This document shows, one piece after another, positions 28,123-33,462 of a stretch of DNA of 60,275 nt. Both the position numbers and the translations under genes were made by a program. This DNA is from DHVE2 group archaeon (GTDB lineage Archaea > Thermoplasmatota > Thermoplasmata > Thermoplasmatales > Aciduliprofundaceae): NCBI GenBank assembly GCA_015521465.1, contig WAOD01000062.1, forward strand, positions 1 through 60,275, written 5' to 3'. How positions within the stretch are numbered: position 1 is the stretch's first letter; the number at the start of each line of letters is the position of its first letter. The notes beneath the pieces were generated by a model that saw only the letters and a program-made list of their open reading frames with translations, made no database searches and was not told the DNA's origin.

Positions 28123-28170
28123 CTTTGTTAACTACAAAATTTTAAAATGTAATTCATCAATAGCGAGGGT

Positions 28171-29712
28171 ATGTATATAATAAAACCCTCTGATTTAAAG
28201 GAAGGGCTACCTAAGGAGACAAAATCTCTCTGCCCAGTGTGTAGCAAGGTAATTCCAGCGACCATATACGAGGAAGATGGTAAAATTTGGTACAAGAAAA
28301 CATGCCCGGAGCATGGCGAGTTCAAGGATATTTATTATGGAGATGCTGAGGTTTGGCACTGGATGGAAAAGTGGGGGACCATTCTTGATGGAATTGGACC
28401 AGAGTATCCTAAGATATTCAACGGTTTTTCTGATCACCATTATTCTTTGACTGCACTGGCGAATCTTGATCTTACCAATAGGTGCAATCTGAGATGTCCC
28501 ATATGTTTTGCAAATGCCAACGCTGCAGGTTACGTTTACGAGCCTGATTTTGACACAGTTGTTAAGATGATGAAGCTGCTAAGGGATGAAAAGCCAGTGC
28601 CTACACCTGCCATACAGTTTGCAGGCGGTGAGCCGACCATTTATCCGCGTTTCTTCGATGTTATTCGCAAGGCAAATGAGTTAGGTTTTCCACAGGTTCA
28701 GGTTGCTACTAATGGTATATTGATTGCCAATCAGAAAGACTTTGCCCAGAAGATGGCAGATGCAGGCATGCATACTGTTTATCTTCAATTTGACGGTTTT
28801 AAGGAAGAAACTTACATTACTGCAAGGGGTGTGAATTTGCTGCCCCTGAAGATGAAGGCAATAGAAAATCTCAGGAATGTCAAGCCAAAACCCCTCGCAA
28901 CTGTTTTAGTGCCCGTTGTGGTCAAGGGTGTAAATGATGATGAGGTTGGTAAAATAGTTGAGTTTGGTCTTCAAAATTTAGATGTGATTAGGGCAGTTAA
29001 TTTTCAGCCAGTTGCTCTAACCGGTCGCATTCCACAGGGCGAAATACTGAAGATGAGGTACACCACCGGTGACCTGATTCGCGATTTGCACGAGCAGACA
29101 GATTTCATAGAAAAGAAGGATTTCTTCCCCATACCTGTTGCTGCTCTGTTTGCAGAGTTGGCTGCCCAGATCTTCCACAAACCCGAACCTGCATTTACCA
29201 CGCATCCTGCTTGCGGTGCGGCCACGTACGTATTCCATGACTATGAAAAGGACAAGAACATACCCATTACCCGTTTCATAGATGTAGCTGGTTTGCTGGA
29301 AGCATTAAAGGACCCTGTATTCAACGAGGATTTCGAAAAGCGTGGTAAGTTGAGGAATGTCCTTATGCTTTACAAGCTGCTTAAGAAACACTACGATCCT
29401 AAATACGCACCCACGGGATTCAAGCTTAAAGAGATACTATCTGTATTTGAGCAGGGAACCAAGGATTCTCTGGGCAAGCTTCACTGGGATTCAATGTTCA
29501 TAGGCGCCATGCACTTCCAGGACCACTGGAATTACGATATTGCTCGTGTGGTGCGTTGTGTAATACATTACGTCACTCCCGATATGAGGCTTATTCCGTT
29601 CTGCTCATACAATTCAGGACCGACATTCAGAACGGAGGTTGAAAAGAAGTTTTCGGTATCGCTTGAAGAATATAGAAAGAAACACGGCAATGTGGTAGGA
29701 GTAGAGGGATAA
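28171..29712 (+). CDS. tes: Radical SAM enzyme, candidate tetraether lipid synthase (Tes / GDGT-MAS family)
   Basis: Canonical 'CNLRCPIC' (CX3CX2C). N-terminal 'CPVC...CPEHG' metal site. 513 aa. It is followed within 2 nt by a ferredoxin and then geranylgeranyl reductase. The radical SAM call is secure; the Tes assignment is from memory of the family and from context. Confidence 0.6.
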   Translation: MYIIKPSDLKEGLPKETKSLCPVCSKVIPATIYEEDGKIWYKKTCPEHGEFKDIYYGDAEVWHWMEKWGTILDGIGPEYPKIFNGFSDHHYSLTALANLDLTNRCNLRCPICFANANAAGYVYEPDFDTVVKMMKLLRDEKPVPTPAIQFAGGEPTIYPRFFDVIRKANELGFPQVQVATNGILIANQKDFAQKMADAGMHTVYLQFDGFKEETYITARGVNLLPLKMKAIENLRNVKPKPLATVLVPVVVKGVNDDEVGKIVEFGLQNLDVIRAVNFQPVALTGRIPQGEILKMRYTTGDLIRDLHEQTDFIEKKDFFPIPVAALFAELAAQIFHKPEPAFTTHPACGAATYVFHDYEKDKNIPITRFIDVAGLLEALKDPVFNEDFEKRGKLRNVLMLYKLLKKHYDPKYAPTGFKLKEILSVFEQGTKDSLGKLHWDSMFIGAMHFQDHWNYDIARVVRCVIHYVTPDMRLIPFCSYNSGPTFRTEVEKKFSVSLEEYRKKHGNVVGVEG

Positions 29713-29714
29713 AC

Positions 29715-29897
29715 ATGATGAAGGTAGACCCAGCTCTGTGTAATTACTGTGGGGCCTGCGTTGGCTCCTGCCCGGTGAATTGCATGTTCCTGGATGAAAC
29801 ACGTGTACTTATTGATGAGGATAAGTGCATAAAGTGCGGTTTCTGCATTCGCACCTGTCCTGTTGGCGCGATTTCTGCTGATTGGTGGTCAAAATGA
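29715..29897 (+). CDS. 2x[4Fe-4S] ferredoxin
   Basis: 'CNYCGACVGSCP' and 'CIKCGFCIRTCP'. Confidence 0.85.
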   Translation: MMKVDPALCNYCGACVGSCPVNCMFLDETRVLIDEDKCIKCGFCIRTCPVGAISADWWSK

Positions 29898-31081
29898 AGA
29901 GATACGAATATGATGTTTTAGTTATAGGTGCAGGTCCCGGGGGTTCTATGGCCGCCCGGTTTGCTGCCAAGAATGGAGCCAAGGTTCTTCTCATTGAAAA
30001 GAGGCCGGAGATAGGTGTTCCTGTGAGATGTGCAGAAGGCATATCCAGGGATTGGCTGGACATGGTGGACATTAAGGTGGATAAGCGGTGGATTGACCAG
30101 GAGATTGAAGGTGCAAGGATTTATTCACCCGATGAGGAAAGCGTGATAGAACTCTCTGCAGAGCAGGCAGGAAACGAGGTGGGTTTTGTTATAAACCGTG
30201 AGTACTTTGACAAGCATCTTGCATCCCTTGCGGTGGAAGAAGGCGCTGAGCTTTGGTTGAAAAGCCCCGCCGTAAAAATCATCAAAGAAGACGGATATGT
30301 GAAAGGTGCAATAGTAAGAAAATTTGGCGAGGAAGTGGAAGTTCGTGCCAAGATAGTGATTGCCGCAGATGGATACGAATCGCAGGTGGCGCGCTGGGCA
30401 GGCATAAACACAGTTTTAAGGGAAAGGGATATTGTGACTTGCATCGAGTACCGGATGACTGGCATAGATTTAGATGAGCGGTTCACCCATTTTTACATAG
30501 GCTCATGTGCACCGGGAGGGTATCTGTGGATATTCCCCAAGGGAAAGAACGAGGCGCACGTGGGTATTGGTGTGGCGCTTAACAAAATAAAAGAGCCGGG
30601 CGAGGTGAAGATGTACCTTGATAAGTTCATTGAAGAGCATCCCAATCTTAAAAAGGGAGGGCCCATTCAGATCATAACCGGTGCCGTTTCTGTTTGTCCA
30701 GTGCCAAAGAGGATAGTTGGTAATGGCATAATGCTTGTGGGTGATGCCGCGAGACTCATAGATCCCATAACTGGTGGTGGAATTGCCAACGCATCCATAT
30801 CTGGAATGTGGGCTGGTGAAGTGGCGGCGAAGTGCTTAAAAAATCCTGGAGAAGAGTGTTTGAGCGAGTATCAGGAGAAGGTAAAGAAAAAGTGGGAAAA
30901 GAAGCATCTTCGCAACTGGTTTGTGAAAGAAAAGCTTTCGGAGCTTGATGACGAAACGTTGAACAAGCTGATGGACGTGGTTTCAGAGGCTGATTTCAAG
31001 GAGATATCTGTCAGGGCAATCTTGGAAGCAGTGCAGGAAAAATATCCAGAATTGATTGAAGAGTTTGAAGACCTTCTCTGA
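29894..31081 (+). CDS. Geranylgeranyl reductase (digeranylgeranylglycerophospholipid reductase family)
   Basis: FAD fold 'YDVLVIGAGPGGSMAARFAAKNG'. 'IEKRPEIGVPVRCAEGIS'. 'LVGDAARLIDPITGGGI'. ATGA overlap with the ferredoxin stop. Confidence 0.85.
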   Translation: MKRYEYDVLVIGAGPGGSMAARFAAKNGAKVLLIEKRPEIGVPVRCAEGISRDWLDMVDIKVDKRWIDQEIEGARIYSPDEESVIELSAEQAGNEVGFVINREYFDKHLASLAVEEGAELWLKSPAVKIIKEDGYVKGAIVRKFGEEVEVRAKIVIAADGYESQVARWAGINTVLRERDIVTCIEYRMTGIDLDERFTHFYIGSCAPGGYLWIFPKGKNEAHVGIGVALNKIKEPGEVKMYLDKFIEEHPNLKKGGPIQIITGAVSVCPVPKRIVGNGIMLVGDAARLIDPITGGGIANASISGMWAGEVAAKCLKNPGEECLSEYQEKVKKKWEKKHLRNWFVKEKLSELDDETLNKLMDVVSEADFKEISVRAILEAVQEKYPELIEEFEDLL

Positions 31082-31092
31082 TTCTTTCACTT

Positions 31093-33462
31093 TTATTTAA
31101 CCCTTGCAGCATTAATGACCTCGTCGTTGTTTTCCAGATTTATTAGTTTTACACCGTGTGCGTTTCTTCCCATTACGCGTATGTTTTTCACAGGAAATCT
31201 TATGCTCATGCCGTTTTTTGTAAGCACTATTACTTCCGAGTCATCATCCACCATGATGCTCTTTACCACGCTAGCATTACGCGTTTCAATGTTCTTCACC
31301 CCGAATCCCCCGCGTTTTATTTTGCGGTACTCGTCAATTATTGTTCTTTTTCCATGGCCGTCAGTGAGAATCGCAAACACATATTTTCCCTCTGAAGATA
31401 ATCCTGCGGAAACAACTTCGTCTCCATCTCTCAACCTTATGCCGTGAACTCCTCTTGCAGTTCTTCCCATTATTCTCACATCGTCCTCATCAAATCTTAT
31501 TGCTTGTCCGTATTTGGTGAAAATCATGACCTCGCTATCTCCGTTGGTTATCATCACATCTACAATTTCGTCATCTTCGTCGAAGTTTATTGCTCTCATT
31601 CCGTTGCTTCTTATGTTAGAAAATTCAGAGAGATAGGTTCTTTTAACTATACCTTTTTTGGTCACAAAGAAGAGTATGCCTTGGAAATCTTTAACCGAAA
31701 TCATTCTTATTACCGGGCTGTCTATTTTTGGTAATATATTCACTATGGCTCTCCCCTTTGACCTTCTGCTTCCCTCAGGTATTTCGTATGCCTTTGCGGA
31801 GAACACTTTTCCAGATGCTGTGAAAAATAACAGGTAATCATGCGTGTCTGCTTTGACCACGTCTCTTATTAAATCATCATCTCCGTAGGATATCATCAAT
31901 CCCTTGCCACCGCGATGCTGCACCTTGTATTCATCTAAGCTTATTCTCTTAACGTAGCCCCTTTCGGATATGATAACAACGTTTTCTCCTTGGGGTATAA
32001 GCTCTTCCAGTGTTCTTCTATCCACCTCGCCGTAAACTATTTCCGTGCGCCTTTTGTCTCCGTACTTGTTTTTAACGTCAATAAGCTCATCTTTTATTAC
32101 ATCGTACCTCATCTTTTCATCGCTTAGTAATTTTTCCAGGTATTCTATTTCTTCCTCCAATTTTTTAGCTTCCTCTTTCAAGGCGTTGATTTCCATTGAG
32201 GTGAGTTTCTGCAGGCGCATTTCAAGTATGGCCTTTGCCTGTATGTCTGAGAATCCCATGTTTACCAGGTTTGCGTGTGCTTCTTTCACGTCCTTTGAAG
32301 CTTTAATTGTTGCTATAACCTCGTCAATTATGCTAAGCGCCCTTATGAGCCCGTCCAGTATGTGTTTCCTCTCTTTATCTTTTTCAAGCCTGAATTTGGA
32401 TTTTCTGATTAACACGGACATCCTATGATTTATGTACTCCCTCATTAATTCTTTTAAATTCAGCACTTTTGGTACTCCATCCACCAGCACCAGATTTATT
32501 ATTCCGTAAGTTACCTCAAGGTCAGTGTGCTCCATTAATTGATTCACGACAACCTCTGGATTAAAGTCTCTTTTTACTTTTATAACTATTCTTATTCCGT
32601 CTCTATCGCTTTCGTCCTTCAGGTCGGATATGCCATTGAGCTTTCCATCTCTAACCAATGCTGCAATTTTCTTGAGTATGTTGCTCTTGTTCAACCCGTA
32701 CGGAATTTCGTTTATTATTATGCTCTTGTCTTTTATTTCGTACTTTGCAGATATTTTTATTTTTCCCCTTCCGGTGGTATATGCTTCCACCAATCCGCCA
32801 TAGCCGGTAACCTTCCCGCCAGTGGGGAAATCTGGGCCCTTTACAAATTTTAGCAAGTCGTTAATTGCCGCATCTGGATTATCTATGAGATACACCATAG
32901 CATCTACAATCTCGCTTAGATTGTGGGGGGGCATGTTCGTGGCCATGCCAACTGCTATTCCGCTGGAGCCGTTAATTAAGAGGTTGGGGACCCTTGAGGG
33001 TAGAACCAAGGGCTCTTTAAGCGTGCCGTCAAAATTCGGCATGAAATCCACGGTTTCCATGTCTATGTCTTGAAGCATCTCCTCTGCAATTTTTGATAAC
33101 CTTGCCTCCGTGTACCTCATTGCAGCAGGGGCATCCCCATCAATAGAGCCAAAATTACCTTGGCCATCGACCAGAAGATATCTCATTGAGAAGTCCTGTG
33201 CCATTCTGGCAAGGGTGTTGTAAATTGCCTGATCTCCGTGTGGATGGTACTTACCCATAACCTCTCCTACAATTCTCGCGCTTTTCTTGTATGGTTTATT
33301 GTGATGCAAACCCAGTTGATACATTCCATACAAAATCCTGCGATGCACGGGCTTTAACCCGTCTCTAACATCGGGTATTGCTCTTGATACAATAACGCTC
33401 ATGGCGTAGTCTAAATATGAATTTTTCATTTCCTCGTCAATTGGACGCTCTTTAATATCCAT
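31093..33462 (-). CDS. gyrA: DNA gyrase subunit A
   Basis: '[30 protein letters not shown]', 'GKYHPHGD', active-site '[10 protein letters not shown]'. C-terminal beta-pinwheel repeats. Confidence 0.95.

Follow-up and report, generated by a model that had tools for sequence, protein, structure and literature searches.

Tetraether lipid synthase (Tes) has four metal sites; which of them are needed to couple two inert carbons, and how is the synthesis of tetraether lipids controlled? These questions are raised by a three-gene locus, tes-fdx-ggr, in a stretch of 60,275 nucleotides of DNA from a DHVE2 group archaeon (contig WAOD01000062.1; the window, by which we mean this whole stretch). The three genes encode a radical S-adenosylmethionine (SAM) enzyme, a dicluster ferredoxin and a geranylgeranyl reductase (GGR). 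Based on the comparisons reported here, we are confident that the locus is a conserved archaeal lipid operon of an Aciduliprofundum-family archaeon, and we include in this description a Tes with a reduced set of cofactors as well as the proposal of an operator that would link the operon to a TrmB-type regulator and a SAM synthetase gene.

An earlier reading of this DNA, made from the letters alone (the sequence-only reading), had likened gene 1 to the Tes family, of the type of the Methanocaldococcus jannaschii enzyme GDGT-MAS (MJ0619), and our searches bear this out. The protein scores 584.4 bits on the NCBIfam profile NF045702 (tetraether lipid synthase Tes), for which the curated equivalog cut-off is 450 bits, over profile positions 2-485 of 486, and it aligns with M. 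jannaschii GDGT-MAS (7TOL_A) over residues 13-505 with an E-value of 5e-144. The Pfam domains Radical_SAM (81.8 bits) and Zn_ribbon_HMPTM (the HMPTM N-terminal zinc ribbon; 76 bits) are both present. An AlphaFold (AF2) model built from 72 homologs has a mean confidence score (pLDDT) of 92.2, and in Foldseek it reproduces the four-domain fold with template modelling (TM) scores of 0.89/0.91 to 7TOM and 0.88/0.91 to 7TOL at 46% identity. A better Tes elsewhere in the genome would have spoken against the assignment; in a profile search of the whole 1.5-Mb, 96% complete genome there was no second Tes above the NF045702 cut-off, and the weaker radical SAM matches were MoaA, a tungsten-cofactor maturase and a SPASM protein. 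Judged by homology, gene 1 is a true tetraether synthase and the sole Tes of the genome. In the same genome, the gene for a 506-aa radical SAM/SPASM protein precedes that for a B12-binding radical SAM protein (G000:C104:2769-5156; L003:1132-3519). Both score below every curated cut-off, and the pair possibly represents further lipid-modifying enzymes of the ring or bridge synthase type.

The type enzyme GDGT-MAS contains four metal sites, namely a rubredoxin-like Fe, an N-terminal cluster ([Fe4S4]N), the radical SAM cluster and a C-terminal cluster ([Fe4S4]C) (Lloyd et al. 2022, PMC9433317). In this enzyme, the rubredoxin-like Fe is held by C9X2C12X20C33X2H36, [Fe4S4]N by C73, C77, C80 and a conserved His, and [Fe4S4]C by three Cys residues and the labile Met439; Tyr459 is conserved, and the auxiliary cofactors have been proposed to function in electron transfer (PMC9433317). 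Two of these sites had been described in the window Tes from the sequence alone and are confirmed: the radical SAM motif CX3CX2C corresponds to C105/C109/C112 and is invariant in 72 homologs, while the rubredoxin-like site CX2CX20CX2H corresponds to C21/C24/C45/H48, has exactly the published spacing and is invariant in the homolog alignment. Toward the C-terminus, C348, C463, C478, M447 and Y467 are invariant in two alignments. In the GDGT-MAS chain, M447 and Y467 correspond to residues 459 and 479, i.e. native Met439 and Tyr459, and from their conservation we infer that C348, C463 and C478 are the ligands of [Fe4S4]C.

By contrast, the ligands of [Fe4S4]N are missing. In the HMMER alignment against GDGT-MAS, the positions of Cys73 and Cys77 fall into a gap of six residues and that of Cys80 is occupied by Ser87, leaving the His (H90) as the only [Fe4S4]N ligand that is kept. 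The "additional Cys" mentioned in the sequence-only reading do exist, but there are only three of them (C348, C463 and C478), and the whole protein has exactly nine Cys with none to spare. Because there are no alternative ligands, it cannot accommodate all of the cofactors that the crystallised enzyme has. The window Tes resembles MJ0619 (7TOL, 7TOM) in that it is collinear over its full length and shares with it the CX2CX20CX2H and CX3CX2C motifs, the Cys of the C-terminal cluster, the labile Met and the conserved Tyr, but differs from it in lacking Cys73/Cys77/Cys80, so that its nine Cys account for one Fe and two clusters as opposed to three clusters. MJ0619 also differs in that it has not been reported in an operon with fdx and ggr.

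We treat the [Fe4S4]N cluster as typical of the Tes family and not as defining it. The Cys triad of this cluster is present in 129 of the 158 Tes compared. It is absent from all 14 Tes of the window's family, while the sister family (f5) has CP(x)DCGLC. In a FastTree phylogeny of the 158 Tes, the triad has been lost three times independently: in the window's family (support 100), in a clade of 13 Tes from Methanomethylophilaceae and related metagenome-assembled genomes (MAGs) (L109-L117, L121, L122, L124 and L125; support 100), and in a single MAG (L098). L120 also appears without the triad in the tree, solely because the end of its contig cuts the open reading frame (ORF), and is not a real loss. 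In the Methanomethylophilaceae-type Tes and in L098, a Cys-poor insert replaces the triad.

These data suggest that the Tes of the window's family would work with a reduced set of cofactors, consisting of the rubredoxin-like Fe, the radical SAM cluster and the C-terminal cluster with its labile Met, and without the surface N cluster. The lipids of a cultured relative bear on this suggestion. Clustering at 85% identity brings the window Tes together with ADD08391.1 / WP_008082065.1 of Aciduliprofundum boonei T469, which NCBI names Tes, and with the protein of Aciduliprofundum sp. MAR08-339; the A. boonei Tes is identical to that of a genome of the window's family (G012) and has the same nine Cys. 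Tetraethers have been reported from A. boonei (Schouten 2008, cited in PMC11186832); the sequence-only reading had held that an organism making no GDGTs (glycerol dialkyl glycerol tetraethers) would count against it, and for the family this report indicates the opposite. Because A. boonei makes tetraethers with the nine-Cys form as its sole Tes, the surface N-terminal [4Fe-4S] cluster is most likely dispensable for catalysis. By the same indirect argument, namely a sole Tes homolog in a tetraether-making family, the enzyme is predicted to carry out the C(sp3)-C(sp3) coupling of phytanyl termini that gives GDGT or macrocyclic archaeol. Tes variants without the N cluster are not mentioned in PMC9433317 or in a 2026 review (PMC13459092), and what is new in the enzyme encoded at this locus is that it represents a natural subtype of Tes lacking the N cluster.

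The three genes are co-directional, and the gap and the overlap that separate them lie exactly where the sequence-only reading had placed them. The spacer between tes and fdx consists of the 2 nt AC, with the junction reading GGATAA-AC-ATGATG, and the ATG of ggr overlaps the TGA of fdx in a 4-nt ATGA (junction TCAAAATGAAG). The co-regulation of tes, fdx and ggr that had been suggested is supported because of this operon structure. The arrangement is also conserved far beyond chance. We tallied the order tes>fdx>ggr at 93 loci of the Tes clade that contains the window's family (clade A) and found it at 87, compared with 0/61 loci elsewhere. Within clade A, it is present at 14/14 loci of the window's family (f1), 10/10 of the sister family f5, and 63/69 of the remainder, which are mostly from Methanomassiliicoccales and other Thermoplasmatota. 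It is absent from the 11 loci of f3 and f7, two families of the same taxonomic order in which Tes is only ~38% identical, and from 50 sampled loci of the phylum to which a "Halobacteriota" MAG belongs, with fdx-ggr 2 kb downstream at one of them. In the tree of the 158 Tes, the clade with the synteny is separate from the clade without it. One locus with the operon (L114; CAVGUW010000016.1) is labelled Bacteroides salyersiae; its operon is archaeal, its Tes nests among sequences from Methanomassiliicoccales-type MAGs, and the contig appears to have been mis-binned in a public assembly.

The sequence-only reading had presented the three-gene unit as a new implication, and this part does not stand. 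MA_1486 (Tes), MA_1485 (ferredoxin) and MA_1484 (GGR) are adjacent in Methanosarcina acetivorans, and this adjacency was the criterion by which Zeng et al. 2022 picked their Tes candidate (PMC8941075); it was restated in the 2026 review (PMC13459092), and the synteny of GGR and ferredoxin across Euryarchaeota has been noted as well (PMC9385802). The operon is an already published arrangement of which this locus is only another member. As far as the system of M. acetivorans can be taken from its description in these papers, it has the same three products side by side, a ferredoxin paired with GGR, and the same biosynthetic logic of saturation followed by tail-to-tail coupling. One review (PMC9385802) places the ferredoxin "downstream" of GGR. 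The window differs in that its organism is a heterotroph of the Thermoplasmatota whose Tes lacks the ligands of the N-terminal cluster, and in that its operon is associated with a conserved palindromic operator and a TrmB-type regulator.

The identities given to the second and third genes in the sequence-only reading agree with ours. The fdx product has two CX2CX2CX3CP motifs, CNYCGACVGSCP and CIKCGFCIRTCP, and matches the Pfam families Fer4 (60.5 bits over two stretches) and Fer4_7 (52.7 bits), as a dicluster ferredoxin should. The ggr product is an archaeal lipid GGR. It scores 230.3 bits on TIGR02032 against a cut-off of 158.8, carries PF22578 GGR_cat (96 bits) and FAD_binding_3 (73 bits), and matches the Thermoplasma acidophilum digeranylgeranylglycerophospholipid (DGGGPL) reductase 3OZ2 over its full length (E 7e-145, 486 bits), being a full-length ortholog with flavin adenine dinucleotide (FAD)-binding and GGR catalytic domains. 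It lies below the cut-off of the Thermoplasmatales-specific NCBI equivalog (NF041160, 560 versus 780) and is below that of the lineage-specific equivalog NF041080 as well. The Thermoplasmatales-type relatives (f7) differ in that their ggr keeps the ferredoxin and lies apart from tes. The genome encodes a second GGR-family flavoprotein (G000:C73:1524-2738; L039:1408-2622), which scores 177 bits on TIGR02032, is divergent and only distantly related (95 bits against 3OZ2), and has no adjoining ferredoxin.

Does the ferredoxin serve one enzyme of the operon or two? For the M. acetivorans pair, ferredoxin has been demonstrated as the electron donor to GGR (PMC8941075, PMC9385802; Isobe et al. 2014 as cited in PMC8941075). 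One alternative, which extends the single electron donor of the sequence-only reading, sees in it a dedicated reductant shared by the FAD of GGR and the radical SAM cluster of Tes, compensating in this family for the lost surface N cluster. The position of fdx speaks for it, since the gene lies between tes and ggr with a 2-nt gap on one side and a 4-nt overlap on the other and has been kept there at 87/93 loci. Moreover, radical SAM enzymes require a low-potential donor, electron transfer has been proposed for the auxiliary cofactors of GDGT-MAS (PMC9433317), and E. coli carrying ma1484-1485 together with mj0619 made GDGT (PMC12042123). However, there is no adjoining ferredoxin at the 61 tes loci outside clade A, and in two f7 genomes in which tes and ggr are separated (G026 and G029; L262 and L263), an fdx that is 62% identical remains joined to ggr as a two-gene unit, away from tes. 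This persistence of fdx beside ggr at split clusters agrees with the partnership of GGR and ferredoxin described in the literature and lends no support to a ferredoxin serving Tes. The presence of the ferredoxin is also uncorrelated with the loss of the N cluster, as triad and ferredoxin occur together in f5 and in most Methanomassiliicoccales. A replacement of the lost N cluster by the ferredoxin was rejected because operons with the triad carry the ferredoxin, too. Overall, the comparative evidence leans against one shared electron donor; a role of the ferredoxin for both Tes and GGR is possible, and we put the shared and compensating reductant at somewhat less than an even chance.

Upstream of tes, 13 loci of the family share the block TTGTAG-N9-CTACAA-AA-TTTT(T)AAAAT, in which the spacer and the flanks vary while AACTACAAAATTTT(T)AAAAT is invariant. 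The block joins a palindrome to a TATA-like box, the position of which fits the geometry of the archaeal B recognition element (BRE) and TATA box; in the window, the left arm of the palindrome shares bases with the TAG stop codon of the ORF before it. When no more than one mismatch is allowed, the palindrome is found within 200 nt upstream of tes at 12/13 loci of f1, 3/9 of f5 and 41/72 of the other clade-A loci, but at 0/11 loci of f3 and f7 and 0/50 loci of the other phylum. These 56 sites lie in ~21 kb of tes upstream sequence, against a background of 3 in 1.0 Mb of flanks of the same loci. In the genomes of f3 and f7, the palindrome occurs at chance level, with one perfect copy inside a nuoB-like gene. 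Variants of the arms (TTGTCG) are not compensated in the opposite arm and, therefore, a protein-binding site is more likely than an RNA hairpin. The fdx-ggr units of L262 and L263 are preceded by other palindromes beside the TATA box, e.g. TTGTTTA-N4-TAAACAA.

In the 1.5-Mb genome, the palindrome before tes is the only perfect copy. Intergenic copies with at most one mismatch number only two in the whole genome, one 33 nt before tes and the other 34 nt before a gene for SAM synthetase. This second copy, ATGTAGCAATGAAAACTACAA, lies at G000:C69:7872-7892 (L223/L224), and the 398-aa protein encoded behind it is a methionine adenosyltransferase (606 bits on NF003364; cut-off 553). In 17/17 genomes of the family with upstream sequence, the site keeps this distance from the SAM synthetase gene, and a TATA-like run follows directly. 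Because Tes uses two SAM per C-C bond (PMC9433317), and hence four per tetraether, joint control of SAM supply and tetraether synthesis is a sensible hypothesis for the family. In f5 (L244 and L245), the TATA box of the SAM synthetase gene is preceded at this position by a different palindrome, GTAAT-N7-ATTAC.

A candidate for the protein that would act at this operator comes from other lineages. At 41 of 68 other clade-A loci, the divergent neighbor of tes, which shares the intergenic region with the palindrome, encodes a TrmB-like protein of ~245 aa with a PF01978 winged helix (70-78 bits) and a partial TrmB C-terminal domain. A single ortholog, a 244-aa protein, is encoded on a different contig of the window's genome (G000:C10:2600-3334; L176); it has 38-50% identity to these neighbors, PF01978 at 69.6 bits against a cut-off of 25.6, and a partial PF11495 at 26.3 against 22.2. 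In five Methanomassiliicoccales genomes its best match is the tes neighbor, reciprocally so in 5/5, and an ortholog is present in 38/41 relatives. The best fold matches are TrmBL2 (5BPD) and TrmB (3QPH) at only ~21% identity, and the protein is far below all NCBIfam equivalog cut-offs for TrmB, TrmBL1 and TrmBL2. By these profile scores, it belongs to the TrmB family and is none of the named members. Like TrmB, TrmBL1 and TrmBL2 of Thermococcales and haloarchaea (3QPH, 5BPD), it has an N-terminal winged helix, a long dimerising helix and a PLD-like C-terminal domain, and its associated site is palindromic with a spacer and lies beside a TATA box; unlike them, it is short (244 aa), lacks the sugar-binding subdomain, and is associated with genes of lipid and SAM metabolism and not of sugar metabolism. 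Its gene lies between a membrane transporter-like gene and a ribosomal protein L10e-like gene, upstream of a gene for a large RNA polymerase subunit (names from translations), and the C-terminus of the protein bears an invariant ACGYTDNP..H..F motif. Among the tes loci of the other phylum (L126-L175, the phylum of G041), 3/50 have a divergent TrmB-like neighbor and lack TTGTAG-N9-CTACAA.

Based on these observations, we suggest that the regulator most likely binds, as a predicted dimer, to the palindrome overlapping the BRE position. In its fullest form, our proposal is that a TrmBL2-like regulator acts through one BRE-overlapping operator, TTGTAG-N9-CTACAA, to co-regulate tes-fdx-ggr and SAM synthetase and thereby match the supply of SAM to a tetraether synthesis that consumes four SAM per lipid, and that Tes is a natural minimal form making tetraethers without the N cluster. 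Taken as a whole, this is a tentative proposal, which we hold to be less likely than not. What is new at this locus beside the Tes subtype is that an operator has been retained with an unlinked TrmB-type regulator, and that the operator has a second copy at the SAM synthetase gene. No regulator of tetraether synthesis is named in the literature that we searched.

Several observations weigh against this proposal. The regulator gene is unlinked to the operon in the window's family, and the link between regulator and operator comes from other lineages; an ortholog of the regulator is also present in f3 and f7, although their tes promoters lack the palindrome. The operator was not found at the SAM synthetase gene in f3, f4, f5 and f7, and the SAM synthetase site is not among the perfect core palindrome copies in five Methanomassiliicoccales genomes. 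The right arm, CTACAA, overlaps a promoter-like ACAAAA-TTTAA motif that is common in the taxonomic order and stands before other promoters, too, and its conservation may partly be that of ordinary promoter sequence. As regards the enzymes, dispensability of the N cluster is inferred from the published lipids of A. boonei, and ferredoxin has been demonstrated as a donor to GGR alone and in another organism.

Some of the same observations could indicate that the palindrome is a generic promoter feature or the terminator hairpin of the upstream gene and that the TrmB-like neighbor in other genomes is coincidental. The overlap of the right arm with the BRE/TATA-like motif, that of the left arm with the stop codon of the upstream ORF in the window, and genome-wide pattern counts no higher than those of a reversed control would all fit. 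Against this explanation, the upstream gene varies between loci while the distance from the palindrome to tes is fixed, and the arms are conserved around a spacer fixed at 9 nt but variable in sequence; TTGTCG arms have no compensating change, which speaks against an RNA hairpin. The concentration of palindromes upstream of tes relative to the flanks, the placement of the genome's only two intergenic copies, and the divergent TrmB-like gene in the same intergenic region at 41/68 loci also weigh against it. We therefore consider this explanation unlikely and the operator the better account.

It is very unlikely that the Tes of the family is altered or reduced in function, making only macrocyclic archaeol or glycerol trialkyl glycerol tetraether (GTGT), or is inactive, with another enzyme making the tetraethers. 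In favor of this alternative, the protein has none of the three Cys that ligate one of the type enzyme's four metallocofactors. On the other hand, the genomes of the window and of A. boonei each have a single match at the level of Tes, the other radical SAM matches being MoaA, the tungsten-cofactor maturase and the SPASM protein, and A. boonei with the same nine-Cys Tes is reported to make GDGT-derived tetraethers. In addition, the catalytic elements, i.e. the radical SAM motif, the C-terminal cluster Cys, Met447 (Met439) and Tyr467 (Tyr459), are all invariant, and purifying selection on Tes is clear across the 14 genomes of the family (83-99% identity). Finally, we give next to no credence to gene 1 being a cofactor-maturation radical SAM protein, either as in the old HMPTM/methanopterin methyltransferase annotation of MJ0619 or of the TrsS selenoprotein family, an identity to which the name of the Pfam domain "HMPTM N-terminal zinc ribbon", a score of 302 bits on the TrsS profile and the label 7,8-dihydro-6-hydroxymethylpterin dimethyltransferase on homologs in some JGI records might point, but which is already largely refuted: on TrsS the protein fails to reach the cut-off of 490, whereas on the Tes profile it exceeds the threshold, MJ0619 itself was demonstrated to be GDGT-MAS (PMC9433317), the full-length fold fits 7TOL, and the gene is kept in an operon with a lipid reductase.

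The features of the locus are collected in Table 1. The stretch from the TATA-like box to the ATG of tes (28148-28171) is 9-10 nt shorter in the window's genus than in the other genera of the family; because of this shortness, the tes mRNA may have little or no 5' leader, and the GAGGG at 28165-28169 may go untranscribed.

Table 1. Coordinates of the tes-fdx-ggr operon and of the elements and gene next to it in the window.
Feature	Coordinates	Strand	Remarks
Candidate palindromic operator, TTGTAG-N9-CTACAA	28117-28137	none	sequence and conservation across 13 family loci
TATA-like box, TTTTAAAA	28140-28147	+	putative promoter; 2 nt 3' of the palindrome; ~27 nt 5' of the tes ATG
tes, tetraether lipid synthase (radical SAM)	28171-29712	+	513 aa; TAA stop 29710-29712
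fdx, 2x[4Fe-4S] ferredoxin	29715-29897	+	60 aa
ggr, digeranylgeranylglycerophospholipid (geranylgeranyl) reductase, flavoenzyme	29894-31081	+	395 aa; start at ATG 29894
T-rich stretch, TTCTTTCACTTTTATTT	31083-31098	+	after the ggr stop; possible oligo-T terminator, from sequence
gyrA	31093-33462	-	convergent; 11 nt beyond the end of ggr

In the model that we suggest, tes, fdx and ggr would be transcribed from one promoter and be translationally coupled. GGR, an FAD enzyme, would saturate the geranylgeranyl chains of the diether lipid with electrons from the co-encoded dicluster ferredoxin, as in the M. acetivorans pair. Tes, by orthology with M. jannaschii GDGT-MAS, which acts on saturated lipids (PMC9433317), would then couple the saturated phytanyl termini to give tetraethers at the expense of two SAM per C-C bond. 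As conservation and gene neighborhood suggest, a dimer of the TrmB-type regulator would sit on the palindrome at the BRE, and the same operator at the SAM synthetase promoter would allow the two to be tuned jointly.

If this model is correct, it would place the N cluster outside the catalytic core of Tes, and it would provide the first regulator proposed for archaeal tetraether-lipid synthesis. The question of which of the four metal sites of Tes are needed to couple two inert carbons can be approached here through natural variation, as the N cluster has been lost three times, once in a cultured tetraether maker, and the triad-less Tes offers enzymologists a ready-made minimal enzyme. The operator, the candidate TrmB-type regulator and the link to SAM synthetase are leads on how archaea regulate their membrane lipids, and the regulation of tetraethers is relevant to palaeoclimate proxies based on GDGTs and to the engineering of archaeal lipids.

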